The translations under genes were made by a program, and so were the position numbers. A stretch of DNA of 64,000 nucleotides from Chiloscyllium plagiosum (Eukaryota). The notes under the pieces are model-generated. The model searched no databases and had not been told where the DNA came from. It saw nothing but the letters and a program-made list of their open reading frames with translations. How positions within the stretch are numbered: position 1 is the stretch's first letter; each line of letters opens with the position of its first letter. This document shows, one piece after another, positions 1,255 through 62,220 of the stretch. The stretch lies in contig NC_057716.1 in the NCBI RefSeq assembly GCF_004010195.1, forward strand, positions 19,011,429-19,075,428, in the 5' to 3' direction.

Positions 1255-1716
1255 GATTAGAGTGGTGCTGAAAATGCACAGCAGGTCAGGCAGCATCTGA
1301 GGAGCAGGAAAAACGATGTTTCGGGCAAAAGCCCTTCATCAGGAATGTGGGAAAGGGGGCTGAGAGATAAATAGGGAGATGAGGCCAGTGAGAAAAGGTA
1401 GCTGGGAAGGTGATAGCAAGATGCAGGTGTGGTGGGGTGATAGATTGGAGGGCATGATGGAGCAGATAGGTGGGAAGGAAGATGGACAGGTAGGACAATT
1501 CATGACGGCAGTGCTGGGTTGGATCTGAGATGAGGTAGTGGGAGGGGAAATGAGGAAACTGGTGAAATCGATGTCCCACCCCCACTCTCCTATCTATCTC
1601 TCATCCATTGCGTCCCCCCCACCCCCAAATCCCTGTCACGTTCCTGATGAAGGGATAGTCTATTTCCCAGCTTCTTTGATGCTGCCTGACCTTCTGTGCT
1701 TTTCCAGCACCAGACT
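1255..1716. mobile_element. Family B PLE-derived fold-back element (non-autonomous)
   Basis: The left arm gtggtgctg...cagcaggtcaggcagcatc...gcccttcatcagga is the reverse complement of the right arm tcctgatgaaggg...gatgctgcctgacc...ccagcacca. The purine-rich body matches the 3' end of the PLE at 54260-54525. Confidence 0.8.
1314..1345 (-). ncRNA. Minimal type-I hammerhead ribozyme motif (family B)
   Basis: Reverse complement reads TTC-CTGATGA-A-GGGC-TTTT-GCCC-GAAA-CATC-G, with intact core and helix II. Confidence 0.7.
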
Positions 1717-2297
1717 TTTCAACTATATTACTATGATAACCTTTAGCAATTGTCAAACACATTTTGTCTCAATTTCTGAGTCTTCCCACAAGTTAAAATA
1801 TTTCCATAGAATTGTACAACACTCTAGGAGGCCATTTTATTTTTCCTTTTGGCTGGAATGGATTTCTCCTTTCTCTGTTATAAAGTTCCCATTTGCCAAG
1901 ACTATTTTAACAAAGTTTAGTCTATAATTTTTGCAGCAAGTGACATGTTGTCTGCTGCAACTGCTGCTATTTGTAATAGTCAGGAGTTGGTACTCGAAAT
2001 GTTTGGTGAGAAGTTTGTACTTGCAGGTGTGTTATTTCCTAAAGAGTCAGTTTAAAAAGAGCCAAATCATTATACCTGTAGTGTGTTGCAGTTTTAACTT
2101 AATGACATCAATTTATGGCTGCTTTTTTAATGTGCCAGTGTTAAATCAGTTTGCTTTTGTGGCCTGTGCAATGTGGGTTAGGCAGGTGTAACATTTAGGG
2201 TTAAAAAAAGTGATGTTTCTTCTTGAGGAAATTACTTATTCAAAATGCACGGGGGTAACTGTTAGAGAAACTGAGTGACAATATTTTCTCATTGCAG

Positions 2298-2371
2298 AAA
2301 GGAATGTTGTTTTGTGGTAGATCCCTGCATTGACATTGGCGGAGGGGGGTGTGTGAAGAGCTACTATCCTG
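2298..2371 (+). other. Candidate 74-nt exon
   Basis: Acceptor ttttctcattgcag| and donor CTG|gtaaaa in non-repetitive sequence. No recognisable protein. Confidence 0.2.
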
Positions 2372-4060
2372 GTAAAAACATTATTACCCTGCACTTTCAT
2401 TTTTCAGTGGTATAATCTGGTGAAAAGTTGGAACTCTCCAATAATCTAAACTAAACATGTACAATAATGGTGCGCTAAAAGAAAAAGTTAGTTCAACCTT
2501 GATCTGTATGTTAAGAGTCAATGTTTTCAGTCCGTGATGGCAAAGGAAAACTGTGGGTGGAAGCACATCACAAGTACTATGTGTTTGAGTAGCAATCTGG
2601 GAATTGCTGCTGGTCCTCCTGACCATGAACAAGTCAGATTTTTGAATACTGCTGGAGCCAATCTGTTGAGTACAGGAACAGGAAGACTGTAGTAGGAACA
2701 ACACAAGCCCTGCAGGACAGCTGGATGACTGTGTATGCAGGAAATGGCCATAATTTTCTTCTAACTTCCGTGATATGAACAATAATTTAATTTGCTTGTC
2801 ACAGCCTGCCATTGGTGTTCAAAGTTCGTTTAAAGCTAGTACCCCAGTAAATTAATTTTCATTGCACCATGGGTGAGGTGTTAATGCATCAGACTATTTT
2901 CTGTCATCTGCTTTTGGTGAAAATTGATAAATGGGGACCACATTATGCTAACAATAGTTGAAGGAACTAGCAAAATGTGATGGCTGACTGAATTTTTTTC
3001 TTTGTTGCGGGAATGGAGCAGGTGTACAATACAGCGGGAGGATTCTCTCCTGTGCTATGGAAACAGTTTTTACTGACTATTGATGGCCCAAGCGAATCAT
3101 TTATGTTTAAAGTGGACTGTCATTGTTGTTCTTTGTTTCCCAGCCGGCCTCGTTACAAAAGGAAGGGGGATGCTCGTAAACAAAAGTTGTCTAAGTGTGG
3201 AGGAGTAATGACATTGATAAGTGTGCAAAAATAGAAAAACTGTTTACTACTCATGGCACCAAAAAAAATCCATTGGCGCATAAGATTGAAAAAGCAGTTT
3301 GGAATCATTGTTTCCTATTTGTGATGAGGCAGTTTACTCCTGATTGCATCTGGACCTGTTAAAGAAAATCTGGGTACAAAGCTTTTGGAGGCTTTTGTGG
3401 CACAGTGGTATTGTCTGCACCTCTGGGCCAGAAGACCTGGATTCACATCCTACCTGCTCCAGAGATGTGTCACAGTATGAAAACCAGATGCTGTAAATCA
3501 GAAACAAAAACAGAAGTTGCTGGAAAAGCTTAGCAGATCCGGCTGCATCTCTGAAGAGAAGTCAGAGTGAATGTTTTGGGTCTGGTGACCCTTCCTCAGA
3601 ACTGATGGTAGTTAGGAAAATGTTGGTTTATATGCAAAAGTAGGGTGGGGAGGAGGAGTAAGGAGTAAATGATAGGTGGGGATGGACCCCAAAGAGAGAG
3701 AAGAACAGTTGGACAGACAAAGGAGTGGATTGCGATCTGGCTAGGAGAGTGAATAGCAGTCAGTGGAGACTGAAGGTGTAACACCTCCCCATTTGCGTTC
3801 ACCTTCCTCATGTCCAAGGCTCCACACATACCTTCTAGATGAAGCAGCACTTTACCTGCACTCCACATAATCTAGTCAACTGCATTTGCTGCTCACATCT
3901 ATGTTGGGGAAACAAAGCATAGACTTAGTGACCACTTCGCAGAACATTTTAGGGCCTGAACCCTCCCATGTCTCAGCCTCCAACCCCACACACCAAGCCT
4001 TGTTATCACATAGTCTGCCATTACACACCACCTATTGTTAGTCACTGCCAGTCTCCATTT

Positions 4061-5950
4061 AATGATTTGGAGCTGCTGGTATTGGACTGGGGTGGACAAA
4101 GTTTAAAAATCACAACACTAGGTTATCATCCAACAGGTTTATTTGGAGGCACTAGCTTTCAAAGCGCTGCTGCTTCATCAGGTGGTTGTGGAGCAGAATC
4201 ATAAGACGCAGACTTTATAGCAACAGAATTGCAGTGTCATAAAATGTAATATTAAACAAATTTAAGTTTTTCATCTTTTAAATGATAATGTTAGTTTCAG
4301 TTCCTTCATAAGTAAATCCCAGAACTTTTTTAAAGTTACATTCTTAAGGTAGTTTTAACAGTGGGTGTCCTCTCAACTCAGATAATGCATTGAAGGTGTG
4401 AATTTAAAGTCTGTCTGTGTCTCAATGTTAAGTCAGACTGATTCTATTTCTAAAGTGGGTTTTACAGAATTTGACATGGATACATGCAGTTTTTGAACAA
4501 AATAAAATGTAATTCTGCAAGTACAAATTCATCCCGTGTGTGTGTGTGTGTGTGTGTGTATATATCTGTGAGAGTGTGTGTCTGTGCGAGACTAATGGGG
4601 TATAAGTCTGTGAGAGTGTGGATGTGAGTGTGGAGGGTGTATGTCTGAGCATATGAGAGATGATCTGCGTGAGTGTATGGGTTTGTAGGAGTGTGTGTGT
4701 GCGTGTGTGTGAGAGAGTGTATAGTGTAGTGGGGTCACCTATAGTGTGAAATGAACCCAAGGTCCTGGATGAGGCCATCCCCATGGGTATCGAACTTGGC
4801 GATCAACCTCTGCTCGGCCAGTTTGCGCTGCTGCCTGTCCTGAAGTCTGCCTTGGAAGATGGTAACCCGAAGGTCCGCGGCCGCATGTCCTGGACCACTG
4901 AAATGCTCTCCAACTGGGAGGGAACACTCCTGCCTGTTGATTGTTGTGCAGTGTCCATTCATCCGTTGCAGCAGCCTCTGTTCGGTCTCGCCAATGTACT
5001 ATGCCTCAGGGCATCCACGCCTGCAGCGTATGAGTTAGACCATATTGACCTGGTCACATGAGTACTTGCCATAAACATAGTGGGTGGTGTTTCCACATGT
5101 AATGGTGGTATTGAGGTCAAAACTCTGCCACATCTTGCAGCATCTGCCATGACAGCGTTGTATGGTGTTGTCTTGAAAGCTGGACAGTTTAGTGCAAACA
5201 ATAATCTGAGGTTTGTGGTTGTTTGGGTGACCATCCTCCAAGGTGGACTTCGGAACAGGTAACAATGCAAAGTGGTTGAGTAGCGGCTGATAGCCAAGTT
5301 CGGTACCAATGAGGAAGTCCTCAACTGGGACCTTGGGTTCATGTCACACTACAGGTGACCCCACTGCATTCCCCTCCACCCACACACTCTCTCATATGCT
5401 CACACATACTCTCCCACACGCACCCTCTCACAGACTTCTATCCCTTTAAACATACACACATACGCATACTCACACTCTCAGACACTCATACCCTCTTGCA
5501 CATGCACACAAGTTTGTGGGGTGAATTTATACTTGCAGAATTACATTTTACTTTGCTCAAAAACTTCACAAATCCATGTAAGATTCTGTAAATCCCCTTT
5601 TTAGTTTAGAATCAGTCTAAACATTGAGGCACAGACAGCCTCACACCTTCAATGCATTATCTGGGCCAACATGTACCTATTGTTAAGTTCACTTGAGAAT
5701 GTGACTTTAAGAAAGTTCTGGAATTTACATATGAAAAAACTGAAACTTACATGCCCATTCTAAAAGATGAGAGACTTAACAAACAATCCAGGTCTTTTTC
5801 AATGTATAATTTCAGTTACATCAGGCTATAAATTCTGTGTCCCACGATCTAAAACCCCACAGTCACCTGATGAAGGAGCAGTGCTCCGAAAGCTCGTGCT
5901 TCCAAATAAACCTGTTGGACTATAACCTGGTGATGTGATTTTTAACTTTG
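4061..5950. mobile_element. Family A Neptune-type PLE 3' fragment with long inverted arms
   Basis: Arms of about 4105-4865 and 5228-5945 are reverse complements, including (TG)n versus (CA)n tracts. The minus strand at 4735-5230 encodes a decayed Cys-rich linker plus GIY-YIG endonuclease (CHGRCCK...YSC...YIGETEQRLLQRMNGH...PVGEHFS...KLAEQRLIAKFDTHGDGL). Confidence 0.85.
5864..5898 (+). ncRNA. Minimal type-I hammerhead ribozyme motif (family A), core intact
   Basis: CAC-CTGATGA-A-GGAGC-AGT-GCTCC-GAAA-GCTC-GTG: helix I CAC/GTG, helix II GGAGC/GCTCC, AGCT palindrome in place of helix III, CUC cleavage triplet. A mirror copy lies at 4150-4184 (-). Confidence 0.75.
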
Positions 5951-7912
5951 AACACTTTCCTAGCTTGTATCAGTTCTGAGGAAGGGTTACTGGATCAGAA
6001 GCATTAAGTCTGATTTCTCTTCACGAATGCTGCCAGACCTGATGTGTCATAATATATCTGAACAAGTTGCTTAAAAATATCTACAAAGACTTTGGAAGCA
6101 TTTGGAAGAAATCTGCAATAACATTCATGCATTGTTTCTTAATGCAGTTGTGGAAGAAGTTTTGGCGCTGTTATTCAGGGGTGAGGATTAACACCTTTTT
6201 TTATCCTGCGTTGCAATTTGGCTTATATTTAAAAGGGTTTCTGTTGGATACGATGGCCTTTTTGTCTTCCAGAATAAATTTGTATCTGGTGATAGAAAAT
6301 ATTATAATTGTGTGTATTTAAAAATCTCATTTCCAGTCTTTGAAATGTAGTCCATGTTAGTGATGATACCATATATCTATCCAAAAAGGTTATTTGTGTT
6401 TTGCTTTCAATTCAGTAATTTCCAGTTTGCCAGCTGTATCTGAATCCTTTGCTTGTTACCTAAAAATAGCATCTGTGTCATTGTCTGTCTTTTGCTTCCT
6501 TACTCACTGGCTCCATTCATTCAGTAAGAGTGCTCATTGCTGAGATTGGTACTATTACTGCCATTGAATGGCAGTGTAAAATCCTGTTTGGAAGCCAAGT
6601 ATTCTGTCATTTCCTATGAGGCAGGACAGCATTGGGCTGTGTGGTCGTGATACCCACAGGAAGGGTGCGGTCTGTTAGGTCACTCATTCCTATTCAGGAG
6701 CTATTTTTTGAGTTTGAAATACAGTACAGTCTTTTTCAGTCAATTTCCATTCATCTAGTTGAGCCAGGAAACTCTCTAACCAAGTGGAAATATGTGACAA
6801 GTTGATTGGATGATGTGTCATTCAACCCCTTTCACCTTAACAATAGGAGTTATGACGTGGTTTCATCAAAATCAGACCAGAAATTCGACGTTTAGATCAG
6901 AAGCTTGAACAAATTTTTGTTTTTCTAACAAAAAAGGTTTGGACACACTATGTAAAAGGTATTGTATTTTAATCATGCTGTTTATACTTACTGGATATCT
7001 GTAAATTATATTAACGTATGTTAATCTCCTTCAGAATCTTAGCAAATCTGAATTTAAAGCCAAATATGATGTGTACATGGTTAAAACCTTGTCACGTTGT
7101 AATAATAACTAATTTACCAACAGCACGTTTGACCTGCATGTTAAAGTTGTCTTGAATCTCCCTGATGTCAATCTGTAAAATACACATTGAAAACAGCATT
7201 AAAAATATGATACTGAAAGTCTGGTACATAAAAGCAGAAACATGATTTTGTGTACAAATTCCCCGTGTATTGTATCATTGATGAATGTTGATCAGTTTTC
7301 TCCTGTCTTCTGAATACTTCAAAACTAGTGCTCTTCAACAACAGTCATTGAGTGATTTTCATTCAGAAACTGGAATCTTAGTTTATTTCCAAATGGATTC
7401 CTAGTAAGAGCTGTTGAGTGTCTTGTGTTTCATCTTGAATTATCTGTCATACCTGAGGGATTCTCTATTAGTACTTTGAGAAGTCTGCTGTTATTAGAAA
7501 TTACATTAAAACAATGCCTTTTGAGTACTTGTATCGTAAGTATAAATTTTGTAATAGTTAAGCAACTGGTTTTAAAATTTTGAGTTTGTTCTGTTTATTT
7601 GAAAGCTAGGCCATAGAGGACAGAAGTTGAGCCATTAGTCTTGATCATGAGACTTCTGCTTTTCTTTTGAAGATCAGATGCTTTGTGACATCTGATCATT
7701 CTTTTGCCGCCTGTCTTGGCTGAGCTCCAGTTTTTTTTCCCATTAAATACTGGGACTACAGAAGCCATTATGTTCCCTGCCACGAACTCCATATTGAATG
7801 ACACTGATTCCATCCCCATCCTGGCCATCGTTAGTTTCACTAGCCTGCATGCAGAATTAGTGTCCGATTTGACTACACACTCCACCATTTAAACACTGCC
7901 TGTGTCACCTTA

Positions 7913-7956
7913 TAACATTATACATGCCAGCCTGTGTAACATTATACATGCCAGCC
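7913..7956 (+). repeat. Local 20-bp tandem duplication
   Basis: taacattatacatgccagcc at 7913-7932 and again at 7937-7956. Confidence 0.85.
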
Positions 7957-8160: not shown

Positions 8161-8542
8161 AAATCGCACAACACCAGGTTATAGTCCAGCAGGTTTATTT
8201 GGAAACACTAGCTTTACGAGCGCTGCCCCTTCATCAGGTGGTTGTGAAGTATAATATCTTAAGACACAGAATTTATAGCAAAAGTTACAGCGTAATGTGA
8301 TAAATTATACAGAAAAAGACCTGGACAATCCAGGTCTTTTTCAACATATATAACTTCAGTTACATCATAAGATAAACTTTTGCTATAAATTCTTTCTTAA
8401 CTATCTTATACTTCACAATGACCTGATGCATGAGCAGCGCTCTGAAAGCTAGTGCTTCCAAATAAACCTGTTTGAACTATAACCTGGTGTTGTGCGATTT
8501 TTAACTTTGTACACACCAGTCCATTACCGGCCTCTCCAAATC
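8161..8542. mobile_element. Family A short fold-back element with degenerate hammerhead motifs in both arms
   Basis: aaatcgcacaacaccaggttatag... pairs with ...ctataacctggtgttgtgcgattt, followed by an unpaired tail of about 40 nt (aactttgtacacaccagtcc...ctccaaatc). Confidence 0.85.
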
Positions 8543-9857: not shown

Positions 9858-9986
9858 AACATCTTTTGCTTAGCGAGTTCTGAGAAAATTTGTAGTTCAG
9901 CTTGAGGTTCTGGATGTCGGTTTGCTGCTGAGCTGGAAGGTTCATTTCCAACGTTTCGTTACCTTACTAGGTAACATCTTTTGCTT
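9858..9986 (-). mobile_element. Family C' PLE 3'-terminal fragment, truncated inside the hammerhead, with 14-bp TSD
   Basis: aacatcttttgctt at 9858-9871 and 9973-9986. The reverse complement reads (A)GATGTTACC-TAGTAA-GGTAAC-GAAA-CGTT, i.e. helix II and GAAA without CUGA. Confidence 0.7.
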
Positions 9987-11570: not shown

Positions 11571-11810
11571 CACAGGTAAAATATGAATGTGGTGCTGGAA
11601 AAGCACAGCCAGTGAGGCAGCATCCGAAGAGCAAGAGAATCGATGTTTCGGGCATAAGCCCTTCATGATGAAGGGCTTATGCCTGAAATGTTGAATTTTT
11701 TTTTCTCTCCTGCTCCTTGGATGCTGCCTGACCAGCTGTGCTTTTCCAGCACCACGCTCTCAATTCTAATCCCTAGCATCTGAAGTCCTCACTTTCTCCA
11801 CAGGTAAAAT
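11571..11810. mobile_element. Family B mini fold-back element with 12-bp TSD
   Basis: TSD cacaggtaaaat at 11571-11582 and 11799-11810. Palindrome centre gcccttcatgatgaagggc. Tail ...catctgaagtcctcactttctc. Confidence 0.85.
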
Positions 11811-16519: not shown

Positions 16520-16645
16520 CACTTGACGAAGGAGCAGCGCTGTGAAAACATTTGATTTCAAATAAACTTGTTGGATTATAACGCTGTGTTATGTGACTTC
16601 CTGACTCTGTTCACACCAGTCTAACACCAGCACCTCCACATCATG
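16520..16645 (+). mobile_element. Family A-like PLE terminus starting at a degenerate hammerhead
   Basis: cacttgacgaaggagcagcgctgtgaaa...aaataaacttgttggattataac...ccagtctaacaccagcacctccacatc. Confidence 0.7.
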
Positions 16646-17002: not shown

Positions 17003-17113
17003 TTGTATAAATGAAGAAGGGTTACACCAGAAACATCGACTTCAACACCACCTGATGTTGTCTGGCTTGCTGTGTTTTTCCAGCCTCCTGCCTGTCTACT
17101 CTTGTATAAATGA
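17003..17113 (+). mobile_element. Family E PLE terminus with 12-bp TSD, beginning inside the hammerhead core
   Basis: ttgtataaatga at 17003-17014 and 17102-17113. The insert starts (TGA)AGAAGGGTTACACCAGAAACATCGAC and matches the end of the PLE at 43651-43741. Confidence 0.75.
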
Positions 17114-19368: not shown

Positions 19369-19931
19369 AAAGCACAATATTCAAAGTTTGTGAGAAGATT
19401 TGTAGCTCGGGTGCTTGTTGCTGTGGTTCTGTTCGCCGAGCTGGAAGTTTTTGTTGCAAACGTTTCGTCCCCTGGCTGGGCGACATCATCAGTGCTTGGG
19501 AGCCTCCTGCGAAGCGCTTCTTTGATGTTTCCTCCGGTGTTTATAGTGGTCTGTCCCTGCCGCTTCCGGTTGTCAGTTTCAGCGAATTCATGTTGCTTGT
19601 TGTCTGCGTGTGTGTTCGACTGGGACAACACTACTATCATAGGGCAAGCCAGACAGAGAACAGCCAGGGAATTCCTAGAGGCATGGCATTCATCCACAAA
19701 CTCCATCAACAAACACATCGACCTGGACCCAATATACCAACCACTACAGCGGACAGCTGAAACTGACAACCAGAGGCGGCAGGGACAGACCACTATAAAC
19801 ACGGAGGAAACATCAAAGAAGCGCTTCGCAGGAGGCTCCCAAGCACTGATGATGTCGCCTAGCCAGGGGACGAAACGTTTGCAACAAAAACTTCCAGCTC
19901 GGCGAACAGAACCACAACAAAGCACAATATT
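19369..19931. mobile_element. Family C (Penelope/Poseidon-type) fold-back element, young, with 13-bp TSD
   Basis: TSD aaagcacaatatt at 19369-19381 and 19919-19931. Arms of about 165 bp are near-identical inverted copies. The loop encodes a GIY-YIG C-terminus, FDWDNTTIIGQARQRTAREFLEAWHSSTNSINKHIDLDPIYQPL. Confidence 0.9.
19843..19882 (+). ncRNA. Minimal type-I hammerhead ribozyme motif (family C), core intact
   Basis: GCA-CTGATGA-T-GTCGCC-TAGCCA-GGGGAC-GAAA-CGTT-TGC. An intact mirror copy lies at 19456-19495 (-). Confidence 0.75.
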
Positions 19932-27603: not shown

Positions 27604-27605
27604 AT

Positions 27606-36602: not shown

Positions 36603-36715
36603 ATAGATAAACAGGAGGCTAGAAGATCACAACAAGCCTGGCAGCATCAGGAGGTGGAGAAGCCAATGTTTCAGGTGTCAACCCTTCTTCAGGGTTAATG
36701 CATTGACCTCTCCAA
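36603..36715 (-). mobile_element. Family E PLE terminus
   Basis: The reverse complement reads CCCTGAAGAAGGGTTGACACCTGAAACATTGGCTTCTCCACCTCCTGATGCTGCC, matching 17011-17100 and 43651-43741. Confidence 0.7.
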
Positions 36716-42905: not shown

Positions 42906-43921
42906 TTCATAGAATCATAGAATCCCTACAGTGTGGAAGCAGGCCATTCAGCCCATCGAATCCATACTGACCCTCTGAAGAGCATCCCACCCAGACCCAC
43001 CTCTCAACCCTAGCCCTGTAATCCTGCATTTCCCATACCTAATCCACCTAACCTATACATCCCTGGCCACTGGGTGATGCAAAAACCTGCCTGTACACCA
43101 ACCCCTCATCTTCATCCGGGACCCCAAACAATCCTTCCAAGTGAGACAGAGGTTCACCTGCCTCTCTTCTCTTCTAACCTCGTTTATTGTATCAAGTGCT
43201 CCCGATGTGGTCTTCTCTACACTGGGGAGACCAAACGTAAACTTAGGGAATGGCTTGCCAAGCACCTCAGCCCAGGGGCTGACCAAACCTCCCAGTCACC
43301 ACCCATTTTAATTTCCCCTTCCCACTCCCTTTCTGACATTACCATCCTTGGCCTCCTCCATTGCCACAACAAATCAAACTGCAAATTGGAGGAACAATAC
43401 CTCATCTTCTTCCTGAGCAACCAACAGCCCAGAGACTCAACGTTGAGTCCTCCAATTTCAAATAACCTCCCTTCCCATCCCCCAACTCCCTTCCCCAGCC
43501 CCTCTCCCTCCCTGTCACCAACCAGATTCATTCCTCCCATTGACTAACCAGGTCTTACTCTCTACCTCTGCCAGGTCTTCACCTATCCCCCATTCATCAC
43601 CCTGCCCCCACCACCCCCTTTATCTGCAGCTCCCCCTACATCCACCCCCAGTCCTGAAGAAGGATTACACCGGAAACACGACTGCTCCACCTCCTGATGG
43701 TGCCTGGCTTGCTTTGTTCTTCCAGCCTCTTGCCTGTCTACAAGGGGCAATTTAGCATGACCAATTTAACTAACCTGCACGTCTTTGGACTGTGGGAGGA
43801 AACCCATGCAGACATGAGGAGAATATGCAAATACCACACAGACAGTTAGCTGACGGTGGAATGGAACCCAGATCCCTACCGCTGTGAGGCAACAGTGCTA
43901 ATCACTGAACCACCATGCCCC
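42906..43921 (-). mobile_element. HE1-type V-SINE split by a PLE insertion
   Basis: The SINE tail is at 42906-43070 and the V-domain and head at 43741-43921. The two parts join colinearly (...ccctggccac | aaggggcaatttagc...). Confidence 0.85.
43071..43741 (+). mobile_element. Family E Neptune-type PLE 3' fragment (GIY-YIG + terminus with hammerhead motif at about 43651-43683)
   Basis: SSNLVYCIKCSRCGLLYTGETKRKLREWLAKHL...ILGLLHC..KLEEQYLIF, then GTC-CTGAAGA-A-GGATTACACCG-GAAA-CACGAC. Confidence 0.85.
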
Positions 43922-44163: not shown

Positions 44164-44455
44164 ACATAAAATCAAGCCAAAGTTTGTGAGAAGATTTGTA
44201 GCTCGGGTGCTCGTTGTTGTGGTTCTGTTCGCCGAGATGGGAATTTGTGTTGCAGATGTTTCGTTCCCTGTCTAGGTGACATCCTCAGTGCTTGGGAGCC
44301 TCCTGTGAAGCGCTTCTGTGCCAGGCGGAGGAAAGATCACAGAAGCGCTTCACAGGAGGCTCCCAAGCACTGAGGATGTCACCTAGACAGGGAACGAAAC
44401 GTCTGCAACACAAATTCCCAGCTCGGCGAACAGAACCACAACATAAAATCAAGCC
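44164..44455. mobile_element. Family C mini fold-back element, young, with 15-bp TSD
   Basis: TSD acataaaatcaagcc at 44164-44178 and 44441-44455. Arms of about 105 bp are nearly identical, with a loop of about 17 nt. Confidence 0.92.
44367..44406 (+). ncRNA. Minimal type-I hammerhead ribozyme motif (family C variant)
   Basis: GCA-CTGAGGA-T-GTCACC-TAGACA-GGGAAC-GAAA-CGTC-TGC with a GUC triplet. Mirror copy at 44252-44291 (-). Confidence 0.7.
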
Positions 44456-48980: not shown

Positions 48981-49533
48981 GAATTATTTAGGTGAGCTGA
49001 ATGCAGTCTCCATTGATCTTTTGTGGCCTTGTAAAAGGACCGATATATCACATTTACTTTAACAAACGTGGGTACCTGCAAGTTCAAACTTCAGTTACTG
49101 GTTGACAGTTGGAATTTGTTGTCAGTTGACCTAAGTCTGCTGTAGAAGCCATCCATTTGTAAGCTGAAGCTTGCTACCACTACATTCCAAAGATTGGTTT
49201 TACCATTGTAGTAGATGGGAGTCAGGATTATAAAGCTTCTACCCCATTAAAATTCCACCTTCACACTGGTTCTGAGTCATCTCAGCAGTTAATAAGGAGT
49301 TGCAGTTTCCAGGATTTTCCTAAGCTTTACAGACGAGGTTAGCAATAGAACATCAGAACTACATTCTGTAACTCAGACTTTACCTTGAGTAATATCATGG
49401 AGTTCTGCCAGTTTATTAATATTTTGTATAAAAGGCAGTGATATTCTGCATATGCCTTTATATCTGATCTACAGTTTTTAAAAAATGCCAAATGGCAGCA
49501 TTAACAATGTAAATTCTTTGAGAAACATTATAA

Positions 49534-49990
49534 TGGATGTAGGTTTGCCCACTGAGCTGAGGTTCATTTCCAAACTTTTTTTTACCTTACTAGGTAGCAT
49601 CTTTGGTGGACCTGATGTGAAACAATGCTGAAAATTCCTGCTTTCTATTTATATGTTTGAGTGTCTTTGGATTGGTGATGTTATTTCCTGTGGTGAAGTC
49701 ACTTCCTGTCCTTTTTCTCAGGGGGTGGTAGATGGGGTCTAACTTGATGTGTTTGTTGATAGAGTTGCGGTTGGAATGCCATACTTCTAGGAATTTTCGT
49801 GCATGTCTTTGTTTGGCTTGTCCTAGGATGGATGTATTGTCTCAGTCGAAGTGGTGTCCTTCCTCATCCGTATGTAAGAATACTAGTGAGAGAGGGTCAT
49901 GTCTTTGTGGCTAGTTGGTGTTCATGTATCCTGGTGGCTAGTTTTCTGCCTGTTTATCCAATGTAGTGTTTGTTACACTTCTTGCATGGT
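49534..49990 (-). mobile_element. Family C' Penelope/Poseidon-type PLE 3' fragment
   Basis: The reverse complement encodes HFD*DNTSILGQAKQRHARKFLEVWHSNRNSINKHIKLDPIYHPL. The terminus matches 9880-9980. Confidence 0.8.
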
Positions 49991-51572
49991 ATTTTATAAA
50001 TACCGTTTTATAAATATAGTTTTTCCTCTTCTATCTTAGTGTCTTTGGTCTTCAGGAATTCTTGGGTGGAGTGGATGGATGCTGAAACTTGAACGGTCAT
50101 TGATGCCCACTTGTCATATTGTTTGAGTTAGCATCATTCATCATTTAAACCCTACAATGAACCTGAGTATAAAATCCATTCTAGTGGTCCATTAATGAAC
50201 CAATGAGTGATTCTATTCTTAACGATTAATCCGAAAGGAAGCACCATGGACAGATACTGCTTTGCCTGTTGGGGTGTTGTAAATGATTACATAATGCTAT
50301 TCCCAAATCAGTTCTGCATTCTTCCTCAACCAATTGTTCCAGAATCTGATAACTCATTTATTAATTTAGTGTGGGTGGGCTGTTCCTGTAAACTAGTTGC
50401 AAGCCACATTTGCCTACTGGAATACTTCTGATAGAACTTAACAGGAATAAGTCATTTGGCACTTCAACTCTGCTGTCTAAGTTCATGGTTGATTTGGTTA
50501 AGTCTTAACTTTTTTTTAGTCTGCCTCCTGTAACTTTTGCCTTCCTTGTCTATCAAAAATCCCTCTAACTCTGGCTGGAAGAAATTAAATGACCCATCCT
50601 CCATTACTTTCTGGAGAAGAGAATTCTAAAGACACTAAACCCTCAGGGTAAAATGTCTCCTTGCTTCTGACTTAAAGGCAACTCCTCTTATTTTTAAGTT
50701 GTGCCCCCGAGTTCGTCTTTATTACAAAAGGAAACATTCTCTCAGAATCTACCCTGTAAACTCCCCATAGAATCATATGTTTCATTAAGATCACTTCTTC
50801 TAATCTCCAATTGGCAAGGTGCCTTTCTTCATAAGATAAGACCTTCCTCCTAGGAATGAGTTGTGTGAAGCTTCTCTGAACGGTGTAATGCAATTTCCTT
50901 GCTTTCCAAGTAAGATTAATATTGTGCACAGTGTTCCAGATATGATCTCATTATGGCCCTGTACTGCTGCAGTTAAGTTTATGCATTATTTCATTCTATA
51001 CTCCTTGCAATAAATGTCAACAAAGTCAAAAAGTGTGGCGCTGGAAAAGCACAACTGGTCAGGCATCAGCCAAGGAACAGCCAAAAAGCATTAGTTCTTC
51101 ATCAGAAATGTGGGGGGTGGGGCTGGGTGAAAGGAATGTGATAAGTAGATGAAGGTAGGGGTTGATGGTGATAGGTTGGCGCGGAGAGTAGCCCCTCTTG
51201 AACAGTCCTGCCTGTCCATCTTCCTTCCCACCCATCTGCTCCACCCTCCACCTTCATCTTCCAGCGCCACATTTTTTGACTCTGATTTCCAACATCTGTA
51301 GTACTCACTTTTTCTCTTAGTTGATTATAACCTTACTGCAAAGCCTCTTCCAAGGATGCTCACCTTGAAGTGTACAAGGATCTCAGTGAGTCTGTCTCTC
51401 TCACTGCAACCCCCAGGTTGTCTCCTCTGCTCTGAAGCTTTTCAGACAAGTTCTGAAGCAGACCCGCTACTACAGCCACATCTCCTTCCTCAGCGCCTGC
51501 CTACGCAACTGACTGCTCCCACGTGGACTCCAAACTACATTCAGACCATCACAATTTGAACCTGACCAGGAC

Positions 51573-51751
51573 AGCCACTAGCTACAGGATAAAAACAATG
51601 ACTGCAGCTGCTGGAAACCAGATTCTGGATTAGTGGTGCTGGAAAAGCACAGCAGTTCAGGCAGCATCCAAGGAACAGGACCTGTTCCTCGGATGCTGCC
51701 TTACCTGCTGTGCTTTTCCAGAACCACTCTAATCCAGAAGCCACAAGCTAC
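51573..51751. mobile_element. Family B-related mini palindrome nested in the large PLE, 13-bp TSD (1 mismatch)
   Basis: agccac(t/a)agctac at 51573-51585 and 51739-51751. Arms tctggattagtggtgctggaaaagc...gaacagg and cctgttc...ccactctaatccaga with a 1-nt loop. Confidence 0.85.
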
Positions 51752-53135
51752 GGCAAATCCAAAGCCTACAGGAATGGTTCTCCCTCTGGATCCTCCACTC
51801 CATGCTTGCAGCCATGCGCCGCCACCTGCTTCCTCTGCAGTCAGCTCTGTCCAATTCAGAGCCAGATTTGCTAAGAACAGCACAGGTTCCTGAGAAGAAT
51901 CCACACTCTCAATAATTGCTTGTTGTCCAGCTTTTCAGACATCAAGGAACAGCTTTCATGTGCTTACCTCCAAACTCAGGATTCCTCGTTCATTCCAGGA
52001 CTTCCGCCACCATGGATGCTAACAAATGCACTGCTTCTGCCCCCTGACCCCCATGGTGTGCATCACTTCCTTTTGGTGACGTCACACACGATACCAAGAC
52101 CACACCCACTCCAGAGACGATCTCCGCACCCACTACCAACTCCAGCTCTACATCAGGTCCTAGCTCCCACCCTGCCATGTTTTTACTATCCCCCTCGCAA
52201 CCTTTCCCACACATCAGATGAATGATGACTCCTCAGGAAAAGCCATGCCTTCATCCCATCACACTACACTCCCAGATCAACGACTTAACATGCGTCGAGA
52301 CATTGAATTTTTCTTCTGCCACTTTTGCCTCTGCCTCTGTGTTTGCATTTTCCATTAGAACTCCCAGTCACCCTCCAAGGGTCCCTTCGCGCACCTCCAG
52401 CATACTCCATCCACTTAGACACCCCGTGCTAGTCTGTTACCCACCCTTGATCTCCAGCTCCAACTGCCATCATGACATTGACACCTCAACCTGTCCACCC
52501 TTCTCTTGCACTCCAACCTCTCACCTGCAGCCTACCACTCGCTCTGCTCCAACCCAACCTCACCATCAAACCAGTGGACAAGGGGCGGTTGTGCAGTGGT
52601 AGTTTGGCACACCGACCTGTACACAGCTGAAGCTAAGCACCAACTCACGGACAGCTCCTACTGTCCCCTTGACCACAACCTCTCCTTCCATTACCAAACC
52701 ATCTCCCAGGCCAGCCTCTACCTCTTCAACCTCAGGGGATCTCCCATCCACAGCCTCCAACCTCATAGTCTGGGAACCCTGCACCACCTGGTTCTAACTG
52801 TTACCCAGAATTCACTAACCTGACAGCCCTGTTCAACCCATCGTCTCCACCTGCTCTTTCTCCACCAAACTTATCTCCTCATACCATGACACTGGTCTGC
52901 CCCTCTTGGTCCAGGATCCCCGCATACATTTGGAACACCACCTACGCCTTCATCGTCATCATGGACATCCAGTCCCTGTACACGTCCATCTGCCATTACA
53001 GTGGCCTCCAAGCCCTTGAAGCTGGAACCAGTACCCTTCCACCGACACACACTCATTTGACTGGCTGAACTGCTCCTCATCCTCAACAATTGTGCCTCCG
53101 AATCCTCCCTCTTCCTTCAGACCAAAGGGGTAGCC

Positions 53136-53969
53136 ATGGGCACCCACATAGAGCCCAACTATGCCTGTCTCTTTGGATGCGTGGAACAGTCCATCTTCCA
53201 CAGTTACACTGGCACCATTCCCCACCTTTTCCTCCACTACACTGATGACTGTATTGATGCCATCTCATGCTCCCACGAGGAGGTTGAACAGTTTATCAAC
53301 TTCATGAACACCTTCCACCCTGACTTCCAATTCACCTGGACCATCTCGGACACCCATCCTCCCCACCCCCCGGATCTCTCCATCTCCATTCTGAGCGACC
53401 AACTCAACACTGACATCTACTGTAAACCCATTGACACCCCCAGCTACCTGGACTACACCTCGTCCCACCCTACCTCCTGTAAAAACGCTATCCCTCACTC
53501 TGAATTCCTCCATCTCTGCCGTATCTGCTCCCAGGAGGACCAATTCCACTCTAGAATATACCAGATGGCATCCTACTTCAAGGACCGCCACTCCCCTCAC
53601 ATGGTTAACAATACCCTCCAGTGCAATTCCTCCATTTCATGCATCTCCAAACAAGGACAGACCCCCCCTTGGTCTTCACCTTCCACCCACCAACCTCCCG
53701 GATGCAATGCATCATCCTCCACCATTTCCACCACCTATAGTTGGACCCCACTACCAGAGATATATTTCCCTCCCCTCCCCACTCCTTTCAGCATTCTACA
53801 GAGATCATTCCCTCCAGGACACACTCTCTCATTAAGTCTGCACCCTCCACTCCTGGCACCTTCCCATGCCACCACAAGAGGTGTAAAACATGCGTGCACA
53901 CCTCCGTCCAAGGCCCCAAAGGATCCTTCCACATCCAGCAGAGATTTTTCTGCACCTCCAACTATCTGA
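53136..53969 (+). pseudogene. Longest surviving frame of the PLE reverse transcriptase (palm/thumb)
   Basis: 277-aa ORF whose first ~160 aa are PLE RT; frameshifted afterwards. Confidence 0.8.
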
Positions 53970-56249
53970 TCTGCTGTGTCCGTTGCTCTTGATGTGGTCT
54001 CCTCTACGTTGGGGAGACAGGATGCCAGCTTGTGAAACGTTTCCGAGAACATCTGAGATACACGCACCAAACAACCCCACAGCCCTGTGGCTGATCACTT
54101 CACTCCAATTTTTCCTACCGCTCTGCCAAGAACATGCAAGTCCTGGGCCTTCTCCAGCGCCAAACCCTCACCACCTGACACCTAGATGAAGAACGTCTCG
54201 TCTTCCGCCTTGAGACCCTCCAACCACATGGAATCAATGTCAATTTCACCACTTTCCACATTTCTTTCCCCCCCCCAAGCTTATCAAAGATCCAACCCTC
54301 CAACTTGGTGCCGCCCTGTTGAACTGTCCTACCTGTCCATCTTCCTTCCCACCCTCCACCCTCCACTCCGATCTATCACCATCACCTCCCCCACCTTCAT
54401 TTACCTATCGCATTCCTAGCTACCTACCCCACCCCTCCCATTTATCTCTCAACCTCCTTGCCCTTCCCACCTCCAGATGCTGTCTGACCGGCTGTACTTT
54501 TCCAGCACAACACTTTTTGACTCTGAATAAATGGCAGCAGTCTACTTGACTTTCTAATCACCTGCTGTACCTGTAGACGAACGTTTTCTGACCCTTATTA
54601 GGATACCCAGATCTACCTGTAGTTCATATTCAACCTCTCCCCATCTAAATCTGGTAACTTTCCAATTTTCCTGTCAAAAGTGGAATATAACATGGGATGT
54701 GAACTTGTCGATCTGTAAAATATTTACTTACTGACTCAACTTCTCTGTATCCCTCTTGCAGACTCTTTGCTTCATTTTCGCAACTTGCTTTCTCACCCAT
54801 CTTGGTGCAGTTTGTAAATTTGGTTTGCCTATATTCATCCTGACCTCCAAATCATTAAAATGAGATGTAAATAGTTGAACCCTCAGCATAAACTCTTGTG
54901 ATACTAGAGTAGTTACATTTTACCAACCATTTGCCCTTATTCTTTAGTCTTGTTAACTAACCAGTCTTATCTATGCTAATATATTATGCTTTACACTATG
55001 AGCCTTTGTGTGGTAACCTTTAATGTCCCACCTTCTCGAATGTCTTCTGGAAATCCAAGAACACCACATCTGTATGTTCTCCTCCATCCACTTTGCTTGT
55101 TATGTCTTGAGTTTGATAAACACTATTTCTCTCACTGCTTGATCATGTTTTACTGCTAATTATCTGGCTTCAGCTTCTTTAATGATCGACTCCAGCAATT
55201 TTCCCCTCACATACTAGGCTGATTGGCCTCTAATTACTTGATTTTTGCATCCCTTAATTTCTGAATAATGGCATTTCATTTGCTATTTTCCAATCTGCTG
55301 AGACATCAAGACTATGGAAATTTGAAAGATCATAATGTCTCTACCATGTCTTCAGCTACTTCTCGAAAGTTTTGACTACAATGACATCCTAAATCAATGC
55401 AAAAAAAAAAGATTCCCTTTCATTAGCTCAAGGATGGCCTCAATAATGGAAGATGTGGAGAGTAAGAAATTTGCAAAAAAAAAATTCCAAACATAAATGC
55501 AACTTGAGAGAAGACTTTCACAGAAAGCTGATCTTGAACAGTAATCAATTGTTGAGGTTTCTTTGACCTTTTGAAATTTTCTTGCAACTTGAGTGTAATG
55601 GCGGGATCATTGATTCTTGTCTGAAGTGGATTGGTGAGTGCTGATCAGGTGCAGTTGACTTTAGTGGAACGTAATGTATTGTTCTTGTATGCCACATGGA
55701 AATGCTTCACTTCAGACTGTGAACTATCCTTTTCCGAAAGGATGACATGAAATCATCCAGTGAGTTGAATGTGACTTTAATTGAATTGATTTTTTTTTTG
55801 TTTGTCAAATAAAGGATAGATGGATTAGTTTTATTCACCCAAAGAGCACTGCGATCTTTCTTTGTATTCTGTTTTACATTAACCTTTGCTTCTGATTCCC
55901 CAAACCAGCAGGATAGAAAGTACTTAAAAAGTAAAGATCTAATGAGCACACTGGGAAAGATGAGGAGATAACAAATAAAATCTCTTCTAAACATGTAAAA
56001 ATGTTATCCCTTAACCAAAAGTCTTTAAAGAAAAAAATTGTTTTGTCGGTGCAATAGGGATTTGACTTGCATGCAAAGTACTTACTTAGTATCCATCTTC
56101 AGAACAGAGGCTGATTCTACCAATGTCAATAAACGAGGGAGGTATAGAGAAGGTTGGATGGAATAATAGTAAAGGGGGGCACTTAAATGGTTGGCAGCAA
56201 TCCAAGTAGAAAACCTACTGTTTTTGATGGGATGCATCTGAGAGCGCTG

Positions 56250-58125: not shown

Positions 58126-59819
58126 TGGGACATCCAAAAGCCCTTTGTCGTCAGTGCATTTAACATGCAATCTCTGTTGTAACGCAGGAAAAATTTGAGC
58201 ACTGCAAAGTCCCTTAAATGCATTATAAAAATGCCCAGATAACTTGTTTTAGTGAGTTTAGTTGAGGGATACATATTTATGAGAACCAAGGGACAAGTTC
58301 CCAGTTCCTTTTCGAAATAGTTCTTTTGAATCTCGTTTGTACATCTGGAAAAAAAAACTGTTTAATGTCTCTTCCAAAAGTTGGCACCTCTTGCAGTAGT
58401 AACTCTCAAATAGCCAATGTTCCAGGAGAGAGAGCAAAGAAAGTGCTTCAAATACACTCTGTTGCATTTCAAGTAGAGCTTCATTGACCTTAATGACTGG
58501 AAGGAGTTTGCTTTCAACATTCAGAATGGTAACAACATTTTCGTCAAACTGCATTACACTTTGAGTCCCATTACTTGCAGTCAAGAGTCACAGCAGAAAA
58601 GGAAGCAAATTCTGCAGTCTGGATACCTGTACATCATGGGATGTTCTGTCCCATATTCCCAAAGATATGCAGGTTGAGAATCAGCCTGTCAAGTCACATG
58701 TAGTCCAGGATTGATTTTGAACTTCACATTTACTGGCAAAGTAACTCGTAAAATGTAACTGTCTGTAAATTGTTTTTAATCTTTCTCTTATTTTGTTGTC
58801 CAGTTGTTAAATTTTAATATTTAGCCTGTCTTTCCCTGAAATTGAATAAACATTAAAATCTTTGCCAGAGTGTAGACACAGTGATTCTCAATGAAACTGC
58901 CAGCTGTGTTCACTAAATAGATGCAGCTTTTTAAACAAACACTTCCAGTATAACATTCCTGGTGTTGAAATATAAAGATCTTCAATATATTTCTGCTTGA
59001 TTACAGCTGTTTGCTTTTGCCTGGTCGTAAAATTAGGAACCAAGGATAAAAATTAGGAACCAAAGATGGTTAAGCTGCATATAGTTTACATGGTTTTTTC
59101 AATAAATGAGAAATATGAAATGGTCTTGGAAATAAGGATACTATTTATATTTTTCAAGAAAATAAGCAAACCTAGATCACTACCATCTTATTTATATGGT
59201 TATCATATCTGTAATTATAAAAATAATGGAATGTTTTATAGGGAGCAAATATGAAGAATGCTGATAAGAAACTACTAATTGGGAACCAAAGAAGCTGTTT
59301 TAGATTTAGAAAAAAGGATTGAGAAGGAGAATAGCTCAACCTAACAAAACGGATGTTGAAGCCTCACAGTATGCGGTAGTGGCCTCAGGCTTGAGAAGGC
59401 TTTCAACAAAGTTCTGTATGGATAATTGTTAGACAAACTTAAGTCAGTGACTATCCCAGGTGAAGCTCAAGAGCTGAGTTAGGCTAGTTGAGAGAGAATA
59501 AGCTAGAGTATTGTTTGTCAGGGAGTCAGTTCAAGCTAGACATGAGAGATATACTAACTGATGGACAACCAGAAATTAGGACAGGCACATTTCTATTTAT
59601 AAAGGTACATTGACATAAAAATTGGTCAAATTCACAGATTTTATTAAAAGGTAAAGATTGAATAAAGAAAATGCAAGGATTAACATAAAAGAAATGGTGA
59701 TGCATGTAGTAATATTGAAGATGTAAGGGAGGGATGAGCAGCAATTGGCTCATTACTGATTATTTCAGTCACAAGAGGCGAACAATCAAAAAGCTAATCT
59801 ATTACTGAGTGAAAGAATC

Positions 59820-62220
59820 CAAAGAACTCTGCATGCTGGAAATCAGAAATTAAAATAGAAACTTCTGGAAAAACTCAGTAGGTCTGACAGTATCTGTGGA
59901 GAGAAAGCAGAGTTAACGCTTTCTGCCTAGTGATCTCCTTCAGAACTGCTTGTAGCTGGGAAAAGGTTGATATATATGCTGAAGATGGGGTGGGCGGAGG
60001 GGAAAGGAGTAAACAATAGATGGAGTTGGAGCTGAGAGAGAATGATCAACAGTTGGGTAGACCAAGGAATGGATAAAGTCAGCCTGGGAGAATCAACACC
60101 TTCTAATGGGGACATTTAATGGCTGATAATGGGTTGTTTGTGGTAATAGTCCATGTGCCAACATGGCTTTGTGTGTGGGATTTGGAGTAAGTTTATGGGA
60201 AGGTGCTGAAGCCCTAAAATTATTGAACTTGATATTGAGTCCTGAAGGCTGCAGGGCCTCCAAGAGGAAAATTAGACATTGTTCTTCCAGCTTGTGCTGA
60301 GCGTTGCTGGAGTATTTCAGCAAACCTGAGACGCAGATGTTCGCCACACACCATGTTATGTTGAACTGATAGGTAACAGGAAGCTCCGATTCATTTTTAT
60401 GGACAGAATTTAGGTGTTTTGCAAAGTGGCTGCTTAGTCTACGTTTCGTACCCCTCGTGTACAGCCAATCACATTGTAGCAGCGAATACAGTAGAGTAGA
60501 TTCAGTCAAATGCAGATCAATCACTGCTTCACCTGGAAGGTGCACCTGGAGTCTTAGGAGGGATGAAATAAACTGATAGGTGTTATGCCTACTGCAATTG
60601 TATGGCAAGGTATGGTGGGGCAGTGAAGTTGTGTTGGGAGTGGAGTGAACCTGGGTGTCCGAGAGCAAACAGTCCCTATGGAATGCTGGTGGCTTCTGGC
60701 TGGAGGTGGCAGAAATGGCAGCTTATGATCCTTTAATTGGTGATACTGGTGGGATAGTAAATGAGGGCCTGGGAAACTCTGCCACTATTGTGGGAGGAAA
60801 AAGAATGGGTGAAGTGTATGAGAGGGGTTGGACATAGTTGAAGGCTGTGGCAACCCTGGTGGTGGGGATTCCTTGGCTGAGGAAGAAGATGGATATTTTG
60901 CAGGGCCCCTTGTGAAAGCTGACAGATGCAACGGAGACTGGGAAGCTGGGAGAATGGAATAGAATCTTTACAGAAGGCAGGTTGTGAGGATGTATAGTCA
61001 AGACAACTGTGGGAGTTATTAGGTTTATAATAGGTGGCCAGTCTATCCCAGAAATGACAACAGATGTTGAGGAACGAAAGGGAGGAGTCAGGTGGACTAC
61101 CACCGGATGCATATTCCCCAACCATTCCTTGTTAGCATTCTGCTGGGACCATTTCCTCCTGGACACTTCTCCTCCACTCCAAATACCACCTCACACCCAC
61201 ACGGCATCTTCCCATGCAATTGCAGAAGGTATGACCATGCTCATTTACTTCATCCCTCCACACTATCCAAGGCTGCAAGTGCACCTTCCAGGTGCAGCAG
61301 CAATTTACCAGCACTCACTCAATCTAGGAGAAAGTGAGGACTGCAGATGCTGGAGATCAGAGTCGAAAGAGTGTGGCACTGGAAAAGCACAGATGGTGAG
61401 ACAGCATCCGAGGAGCAGGAGAGTCGACATTTCGAGCATAAGCTTTTCATCAAGAATCATTCTATGCTAATCTGGAATTGACTGGTCTACTCCTCAGATG
61501 CTACCTGACTGGCTGTGCTTTTCCAGCGCCACACTTTTTGACTCTTCACTCAATCTAGTCCATTTGTATTTGCTGCTTACAATGTGATTGGCTCTACGCT
61601 GGCGATACGAAATGCAGACTGGCCGACTGCTTTGCAGAACACCTATGTTCTGTCCACAAAAATGGCCCCGAGCTTCCTACTGTCTGTCACTTCAACATAC
61701 CACCCTGTTCTGTGGCCAACTTCACTGCAATGCTCCAGTAAAGCTCAGTGCAAGCTGGAAGAATAGCATCTCATTTTCTATTTGGAAACCCTGCAGCCTT
61801 CAAGTGTCCATATTGTGTTCAATAATTTTAGGACCTTAGGACCTGAGCACCTTCCCCAACCCTTACCCCAACCTCCACACATCAGACCTCGTCATCACAT
61901 GGGCTGCTACCACAACTATCCATTGTCGCCACTAATGGTCCCCATTCACAGCTATTAATTCTCCCAGGCTGATCTTTACCCATTCCTCTGTCTGCCTAAA
62001 TGTTGTTGTCTCTCTCCATCTCCACCTATTGTCTACTCCTTTCTCTTACCACATCTTGAGCATATTACCAACCTTTTCTTAGCTCCAATCAGTTCTGAAG
62101 AAGAGTTACTGGAACCGAAATGATTTCTCTGCTTTCTCTCTGCAGAAACTTCCAGACTTGCTGAGTTTATCTAGCATTTTCTGTTTTTATTTCATACCTT
62201 TAGCATTTGCCGTTCTTTGT
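59820..62220. mobile_element. Family D large fold-back PLE with GIY-YIG remnants in both arms
   Basis: The minus strand at 60093-61100 has the RT thumb (LDYTSSQPAFCKDSIPFSQL) and EN (LYTRGTKRRLSSHFAKHL..KLEEQCLIF). The plus strand at about 61100-61830 repeats the EN. The termini 59830-59960 and 62085-62215 are inverted and carry degenerate CTGAAGA..GAAA motifs. Confidence 0.8.
61315..61558. mobile_element. Family B mini fold-back element nested in the family D element, 13-bp TSD
   Basis: TSD tcactcaatctag at 61315-61327 and 61546-61558. Confidence 0.88.

Follow-up and report, generated by a model that had tools for sequence, protein, structure and literature searches.

The window analyzed here, a stretch of 64,000 nt from contig NC_057716.1 of Chiloscyllium plagiosum within which all positions are counted, contains numerous ends of Penelope-like elements (PLEs) that bear intact or decayed hammerhead motifs (Table 1). 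A strict descriptor, requiring the exact CUGANGA/GAAA/UH core, a helix II of at least 3 bp and a helix I of at least 2 bp, recovers six matches, against a mean of 0.05 and a maximum of 1 in 20 dinucleotide shuffles. The hammerhead architecture is present at the positions that a preliminary description had given for it, and far above chance. Five of the six also possess the ACGT/AGCT palindrome (C3 at 5867+, 19492-, 19846+, 33107+ and 36367+). That description had estimated roughly 20 intact or decayed copies, which is an undercount: profile searches give 42 PLE ends, only five of them combining exact core, palindrome and both helices. At a stricter profile cut-off there are 38 ends, 28 of which extend to the 5' edge of the ribozyme. 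Of its 12 cited examples, those at 5864, 19456, 19843 and 36364 pass every test, while the other eight are defective. An Rfam scan of the sequence returned 17 matches at E<=10, none of them to a hammerhead family, placing the motifs outside the canonical type-I hammerhead of Rfam, and single-strand folding of six copies gave z-scores of -0.1 to -1.4. Pfam searches of reading frames found no host exons in the window or in 40 kb on either side: there was no credible match among 135 unique window frames (one weak, E 0.0055), nor, over 80 kb of flanking sequence, among the longest 75 out of 213 unique frames. A homolog search with the frame at 58261-58587 found none.

Table 1. Hammerhead motifs, PLE ends and coding remnants in the window
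Feature	Position	Strand	Remarks
Group A minimal hammerhead, intact	5864..5898	+	exact core, helix II 5 bp, helix I 3 bp, AGCT; predicted cut after 5895
Group C minimal hammerhead, intact	19843..19882	+	right arm of fold-back insertion 19382..19918
Group C minimal hammerhead, intact	19456..19495	-	left arm of fold-back insertion 19382..19918
Group B minimal hammerhead, intact	36365..36396	+	helix I 2 bp; own antisense arm pairs with ribozyme in predicted read-through RNA fold
Group A hammerhead	33104..33137	+	exact core, palindrome; helix II altered
Group C hammerhead	44367..44406	+	exact core, palindrome; third pair of helix II is a C-A mismatch
Group C hammerhead	44252..44291	-	ACAT for ACGT (palindrome decayed); helix II mismatch
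Group B hammerhead	1314..1346	-	ACAT for ACGT; terminates longer 3' UTR piece
D subgroup (B-related), dead	3568..3602	-	G12>A plus ACAT
Group A hammerhead	4150..4184	-	exact core; helix II broken
GIY-YIG remnant	4783..5160	-	E 4e-24; upstream of group A end at 4181
D subgroup end, decayed	5973..6046	+	profile
Group A ends, head-to-head pair, both decayed	8161..8501	8161-8240 -, 8421-8501 +	profile
C' end	9905..9979	-	lacks CUGANGA strand (cited example 9945)
Group B fold-back insertion	11586..11798	.	TSD 15 bp (1 mismatch); both cores damaged
Group A end, decayed	16520..16599	+	profile
E subgroup end (B-related)	17012..17085	+	lacks C3-U4, 5' core strand missing (cited example 17011)
Group C fold-back insertion	19382..19918	.	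ORF 3' remnant; TSD 13 bp
Group A ends, head-to-head pair, both decayed	22061..22678	22061-22135 -, 22603-22678 +	profile
Group A hammerhead fragment, decayed	32429..32462	-	profile
Group B fold-back insertion	33589..33781	.	TSD 12 bp; cores lost
Group B pieces, two, decayed	34859..34997	-	profile
Group B fold-back insertion	36238..36454	.	TSD 18 bp (1 mismatch); left arm alone with tail
E subgroup end	36618..36694	-	exact core, ACAT for ACGT (cited example 36670)
GIY-YIG remnant	43167..43433	+	E 7e-18; Pfam GIY-YIG E 0.0015, below cut-off; upstream of E end at 43651
E subgroup end	43651..43727	+	lacks U16.1
Group C fold-back insertion	44179..44440	.	TSD 15 bp; left arm with tail
C' end (49531-49608, decayed), GIY-YIG remnant (49900-50007) upstream	49531..50007	-	E 2e-10
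Group B end	51040..51108	-	internal deletion
Group B fold-back insertion	51586..51738	.	arms begin few bases 3' of cut site; TSD 13 bp (1 mismatch)
Longest PLE remnant	53061..54507	+	RT-side frame, GIY-YIG 53855-54256 (E 2e-34), 3' end with hammerhead deleted
D subgroup end (59865-59934, decayed), GIY-YIG remnant upstream	59865..60590	-	profiles
Group B fold-back insertion, decayed	61328..61545	.	TSD 13 bp
GIY-YIG remnant (61565-61823), D subgroup end (62092-62172, decayed)	61565..62172	+	profiles

In the tandem copy L049 each pseudo-LTR contains one hammerhead, the two lying ~3.4 kb apart and flanking an RT and GIY-YIG frame. RVT_1 matches support the link to PLEs, and GIY-YIG profile matches occur upstream of A, D, E and C' ends. 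RT and GIY-YIG, the latter C-terminal, are found in one frame, every copy seen being broken or gapped, along with a partial tandem, a one-sided tail of 30-40 bp, an inverted 5'-truncated copy and a TSD, all traits of endonuclease-bearing (EN+) PLEs. As described in PMC8557442, PMC3846280 and PMC2377424, these elements likewise combine RT and C-terminal GIY-YIG with tandem pseudo-LTRs, TSDs, a ~35-nt tail at one end and head-to-head inversions, but most group B insertions here differ from them in being ORF-less and ending at the 5' edge of the ribozyme. The closest proteins come from Chiloscyllium, Stegostoma and Rhincodon, in agreement with the proposed shark lineage. On the + strand, a mirror copy of an ORF end precedes the group A hammerhead at 5867. 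The motifs share with the metazoan PLE hammerheads of Cervera and de la Pena 2014 (PMC4209133), in its accessible parts, the core, a single nucleotide between A9 and position 10.1, the G10.1-C11.1 pair and a palindromic 15.2-16.2 with no helix III. They also share the coexistence of several families per genome as mostly single dispersed motifs, and opposite-strand pairs 100-700 bp apart; the shark genome, a group B helix I of mostly 2 bp and the 5'-end wall described below set the present case apart. Their sequence marks them as minimal type-I hammerheads carried in pseudo-LTRs of endonuclease-bearing PLEs, and the initial assignment to PLE termini stands.

By profile, the motifs fall into three separate groups, namely A, B with D and E, and C with C', rather than the five unrelated families first proposed. 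Cross-scores reach about 68 bits for B-E and 21-27 bits for B-D or D-E, the A and C profiles score at most 6 bits against all others, and C' aligns with C at 75%. Group C may belong to Poseidon; its helix II had been written as GTCNCC/GGNNAC, a formula that masks an internal purine mismatch. The C-x4-C-x2-C linker of group B is tied to Neptune in PMC8557442, PMC3846280 and PMC2377424. The helices do covary across subfamilies with the core kept, as had been claimed. In a comparison of eight distinct subfamily types, with a shuffle control that ignores relatedness, helix II is paired at 31 of 32 positions versus 23.9 shuffled (reached by 2 of 5000 shuffles) and helix I at 17 of 24 versus 11.1 (9 of 5000). 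The extra base after position 9 and G10.1 are present in all 14 clusters, with G10.1 opposite C in 13 and U in one. Of 146 core-only matches, 79 keep the palindrome as ACGT or AGCT, and the CpG decay forms ACAT and ATGT account for 43 more. One subfamily has swapped C3-G8 for U3-A8. The U3-A8 pattern occurs 2,096 times versus 593 in the control, with most of the matches listed belonging to a single subfamily, and PMC4209133 reports the same variant in Schistosoma. This subfamily indicates that active elements are probably still under selection for the predicted catalytic fold.

A genome-wide descriptor search found 164,232 exact cores against 59 in controls, with about 125,000-145,000 structurally intact copies, confirming the very large genome-wide number anticipated from the window. 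The motif itself is already described in PLEs and what exceeds published counts is the copy number: for other animals, PMC4209133 gives ~2,000-9,000 motifs per genome under another descriptor. As to the term ribozyme load, the copy number it conveys holds and the activity it implies is overstated. After insertion, cores decay neutrally, like flanking sequence: the non-CpG core value is 0.041 versus a tail median of 0.041, with 0.14-0.29 at CpG sites, and 28 of 85 spanning copies remain intact. A same-strand partner is absent within a 10-kb stretch for 50 of 56 intact cores and lies at <=500 nt for two, whereas the copy's own antisense arm adjoins 19 of 49 cores, with a predicted ribozyme-antisense duplex. 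Because the cores decay like their flanks, same-strand partners are rare and antisense arms adjoin many, the load looks largely inert. Among poly(A) RNA reads (one run, ~2% of it), PLE copies do occur in either orientation, upholding one half of the suggestion that they lie inside pre-mRNAs whichever strand is transcribed, although the window itself shows no host exon. In the same ~2% of that run, 1,628 poly(A) reads over copies show no dip at the cut site and no accumulation of ends there, and reads run through it. The number of intact copies, their presence in RNA, the covariation as a sign that the fold matters to the elements and a palindromic helix III that could pair in trans might together speak for a large active load, which would cut host pre-mRNAs as dimers or with protein help and so shape the transcriptome. 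Against neutral decay, rare partners, common antisense arms and unbroken reads, and with metazoan minimal hammerheads being uncleaved as monomers and little cleaved as dimers in PMC4209133, we regard this as quite unlikely; dispersed copies probably seldom cut host transcripts.

Most group B insertions are ORF-less stubs of ~90-140 bp that start just 5' of the ribozyme. Their 5' ends pile up into a wall at the A of TCATTCC, which precedes CUGA by 4 nt and the cut site by 32 nt: 107 of 165 ends fall at -45..-10, 13 at -9..+5, 38 further 5' and seven further 3'. A total of 11,040 group B copies start at the wall A versus 708 at the cut site, where neighbouring positions hold 395 and 537, so that cut-site starts are 1.3-1.8 times their neighbours in raw count. 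A sharp peak of copy starts at the cut site was looked for in group B and none was found, and copies starting there were rejected as an explanation on this ground. TSD-bounded stubs were found, one TSD-bounded copy starts at -1, and some cleaved template may contribute. Since ends pile up at an A 5' of the ribozyme and seldom at the cut site, the data suggest that group B stubs arose by run-off copying of a leader that was uncut and probably capped. Only in group B is the wall clear: group A clusters more weakly, with 15 of its 43 ends in the interval -40..-11, and in group C 10 of 14 copies extend far upstream. Set against the initiator consensus, the A of TCATTCC reads as initiator-like.

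The base preceding the wall A is G in 9,763 cases versus A in 5,419, with genome frequencies of 0.29 for A and 0.21 for G. In L1, full-length copies of capped RNA are recognizable by an additional G (PMC11702581); the G excess before the wall A is suggestive of a cap, though not clean. In six of 30 G loci the G is supplied by the inverted arm, and in three of four TSD-bounded G loci it lies inside the TSD; by eye, among the matches listed, G precedes ~47 of 100 cut-site starts and ~27 of 100 starts at +6. The wall might mark not a transcription start but a preference of the endonuclease or of microhomology for ATT 5' of the core, or the point at which the folded ribozyme or a bound protein ends the cDNA. 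The anole PLE endonuclease prefers ATT (PMC11167929), G-AT is often common to the junction and the target or inverted arm, and the ends scatter over -40..-16 instead of occupying a single base. However, AT-containing sequence further 5' holds few ends, the longer arm ends at -23..-40 in 40 of 47 fold-backs, known PLE transcription starts lie within the pseudo-LTR, and a fold should stop RT 3' of the helices, not 5' of them. We consider an origin by joining or stalling unlikely. Within ~2% of one RNA run, moreover, unlike flanks meet at this wall A in 152 reads.

The fold-backs carry one tail in 37 of 47 cases and two tails in none, with 22 expected by independence. Their junctions vary between loci, which is at odds with the stubs being a non-autonomous SINE- or retrozyme-like family copied via ribozyme-cut or circular RNA. 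Such a family would account for the very many ORF-less units with TSDs, and the non-LTR retrozymes of bioRxiv 10.64898/2026.07.22.740005 are PLE-derived, ORF-less, equipped with type-I hammerheads and present in one chondrichthyan. Those retrozymes are tandem repeats with a hammerhead per unit, whereas here we see dispersed monomers or inverted pairs whose starts precede the cut site by 32 nt; this origin seems very improbable, and membership in the non-LTR retrozymes was rejected given the lack of tandem units and the rarity of same-strand partners.

A parallel is PAc, a Poseidon element of Anolis, for which Frangieh et al. 2024 (PMC11167929) report that uncut RNA is the main template and that the hammerhead is cut only with protein. 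There, two internal RT starts define the tail and both target strands are cut and extended, matching what is proposed here, though in vitro and in another clade; run-off stubs starting at the hammerhead do not figure in the text consulted. Our literature searches turned up no account, among the texts examined, of Penelope hammerheads in sharks or elasmobranchs, nor of strong-stop, untemplated or twin-priming PLE stubs; shark counts or a 5' pile-up could already be contained in the supplements to PMC4209133 or to the preprint, or in Fig. S2 of PMC11167929.

We therefore favor, with a probability of roughly 0.7, the reading that minimal hammerheads of three PLE groups, likely selected in active elements, were spread as short by-products of insertion, and that these probably rarely cleave host RNA. 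The element transcript would start at the initiator-like A of TCATTCC, and RT would begin at either of two internal sites, which lie ~62 and ~97 nt beyond the cut site, by the published tail mechanism. It would run off at a 5' end that is uncut and probably capped, leaving a stub of 90-140 bp, which contains the hammerhead by construction. Priming from both target strands would yield fold-backs that are flanked by TSDs and tailed on a single arm. Dimer partners are lacking for dispersed monomers, while in fold-backs the ribozyme pairs with its antisense arm. We lean, by a narrower measure, to the fuller version in which about a million PLE ends and >100,000 intact hammerheads, >10 times published counts, arose because the transcript begins with the ribozyme, what was inserted being mostly strong-stop copies of the capped uncut leader, often twice per target from two RT start sites. 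If true, the PLE start site, twin priming and the holding-off of the ribozyme during copying would all be recorded in the stubs on a genome scale.

The role of the PLE hammerhead is an open question according to PMC8557442, and this genome supplies very many copies with which to address it. The copy ends say that the copied RNA would nearly always be uncut, and they predict the exact start base. In an annotated genome, a comparison of sense and antisense introns could show whether >100,000 latent ribozymes carry any host cost.

The preliminary description placed hammerhead motifs correctly in the window: a strict descriptor gives six matches, whereas 20 dinucleotide shuffles average 0.05; five of the six carry an ACGT or AGCT palindrome, and an Rfam search of the window returned no hammerhead-family match. 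Among its 12 examples, four passed all tests, the one at 44367 is borderline and seven are decayed or truncated. Profiles derived from copies located elsewhere in the genome detect 42 element ends in the window. The proposed five unrelated families reduce to three groups, because B, D and E share a downstream tail (profile cross-scores of 21-69 bits) and C' is a relative of C, with A and C standing apart from other families at cross-scores of at most 6 bits.

The identity of the motifs as minimal type-I hammerheads (min-HHRs) of Penelope-like elements (PLEs) is close to certain. The window elements match the PLE min-HHRs and PLE structures described in PMC4209133, PMC8557442 and PMC3846280. 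At one genomic locus, L049, a partial tandem comprises a hammerhead, a 35-nt tail, a frame with RT, Cys linker and GIY-YIG, and a second hammerhead ~3.4 kb from the first. Three related frames match RVT_1, and the named proteins nearest to the PLE frame come from Chiloscyllium, Mobula, Stegostoma and Rhincodon; within the window, a GIY-YIG profile built on 53 homologs of this frame has matches upstream of ends from A, D, E and C'. Eleven window loci that are fold-backs or pairs were checked for TSDs: seven have TSDs of 12-18 bp, the remaining four none or only 7 bp. Assembly gaps occur in most of the long PLE copies (loci L046-L055).

Features of the window, and one recurrent genomic structure
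Feature	Position	Observation
PLE frame	53061-53966	86,794 first-look candidates genome-wide, 130 scored
Fold-back	51586-51738	no hammerhead in either arm, since each starts a few bases past (3' of) the predicted cut site
Fold-back	36238-36454	one long duplex in RNA fold prediction
Large group A fold-back	4107-5941	two ORF ends and 3' UTRs, whose (TG)n/(CA)n tract points outwards; no TSD found
Inverted arms in group A fold-back	22173-22572	176 nt
Near-perfect hairpin inside these arms	22342-22402	sub-threshold Rfam miRNA matches
Second abundant short repeat family	14985-15197, 32769-32928, 41464-41945, 42347-42557, 42918-43079, 43745-43919, 63162-63565	not PLE-like; presumably a SINE
Broken frames	13036-13461, 25166-25477, 29543-30479	by eye similar to fragments of LINE reverse transcriptase; Pfam gave no match for the two searched
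Perfect fold-backs	G000:C1:18547205-18547258 (shark genome) and similar pairs	recurrent; arms joined on shared AATT at initiator-like site

The motifs are real and unusual in number, as the preliminary description had anticipated. Exact cores with G10.1-C11.1 number 132,709 of ACGT type and 31,523 of AGCT type genome-wide, against 50 and 9 for reversed-pattern controls. A sample of large contigs, taken as 140 10-kb stretches at even spacing (1.35 Mb excluding N), contains 56 exact-core matches; helix II has at least 3 bp in 54 of them, and 49 additionally have 2 bp or more in helix I. The same sample holds 404 PLE ends (none in reversed DNA), 297 of which reach the ribozyme 5' edge; extrapolation from this large-contig sample gives ~1 million ends and 125,000-145,000 intact motifs. 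End density in the window is about twofold that of the sample (5.9 vs 2.9 per 10 kb). PMC4209133, using another descriptor, counts ~2,000 in Schistosoma, ~4,000 in coelacanth and ~9,000 in Xenopus.

That these numbers amount to a large load of active ribozymes is unlikely: 50 of 56 intact cores are alone on their strand within the 10-kb stretch sampled, and an antisense arm lies just upstream of 19 of 49 intact motifs. In PMC4209133 min-HHR monomers were inactive and dimers weak, and in PMC11167929 the anole PLE ribozyme required its protein. Pfam searches of 135 unique frames in the window and of the 75 longest of 213 in the flanking 80 kb revealed no credible host gene. On the L049 pseudo-LTR, 1,628 reads from one single-cell poly(A) run align in both orientations; depth is 322/437 ahead of the cut site and 327/534 beyond it, and no pile of molecule ends is listed there. 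Unlike flanks are joined at the initiator-like A in 152 reads, and also at the two 3' ends; such poly(A) reads mirror genomic junctions, and neither map a start site nor measure cleavage.

The 5' ends of group-B copies point to a likely run-off mechanism, in which short insertions would be copies of uncut, probably capped leader RNA. From 264 aligned copies we kept 165 sample copies without a junction gap and with tail identity of at least 85%; 107 begin at -45 to -10 from the cut site, 13 at -9 to +5, seven further 3' and 38 further 5'. The peak, at -33 to -31, is the A of TCATTCC (wall A), which fits the initiator consensus YYANWYY. TSDs of at least 10 bp bound 30 of 121 non-inverted copies, including ten plain stubs starting at -44 to -21 and one at -1. 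Counted genome-wide as starts immediately preceded by two non-element bases, there are 11,040 at wall A, against 708 at the cut site, 395 at -4 and 537 at +6; the patterns differ between sites, and wall-A and cut-site anchors are equally frequent in the sample (37 and 37). The base preceding ATTCC is G in 9,763 copies and A in 5,419, whereas A is the commoner of the two in the genome. In L1, copies of capped full-length RNA are marked by an extra G (PMC11702581). As a sign of a capped template the excess is only suggestive, because G derives from the inverted arm at 6/30 G loci, lies inside the TSD at 3/4 TSD-bounded G loci, and is frequent at cut-site starts (~47/100 among listed matches, by eye). 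Among 245 copies are 47 fold-backs, with the tail on one arm in 37 and on both in none, which fits a scheme where the two target strands are served by two internal RT start sites; two such sites, and use of both strands, are described for the anole PLE in PMC11167929. Since group A has a weaker 5'-end cluster (43 copies) and group C mostly longer copies (14), the run-off mechanism is supported mainly for group B.

Covariation of the helices around a kept core, claimed earlier, was borne out among 450 motifs collected by core alone, a pool that includes pattern-selected loci. Their 14 clusters of at least three copies represent eight distinct types, in which helix II is paired at 31/32 positions (23.9 shuffled; reached in 2/5000 shuffles) and helix I at 17/24 (11.1; 9/5000), under a control that ignores relatedness; pairs swap among G-C, A-U, U-A and C-G. 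The compensatory U3-A8 takes the place of C3-G8 in one subfamily (2,096 pattern matches against 593 for the control, with a single sequence accounting for most of the 100 listed). This subfamily (loci L246-L264, also L104:+4824 and L147:+7014) is B/D-related, with a helix II of 5 bp and a helix I of 4 bp; U3-A8 also occurs in a few group A copies, possibly a second origin. After insertion the core decays at the rate of its flank: divergence at non-CpG core positions is 0.041, equal to the tail median of 0.041, and 0.14-0.29 at CpG sites. Of 85 copies that span the core without gaps, 28 are intact, under a filter slightly biased towards conserved cores. The covarying helices and flank-like decay of the core together suggest that active elements, rather than the dispersed copies, are under selection.
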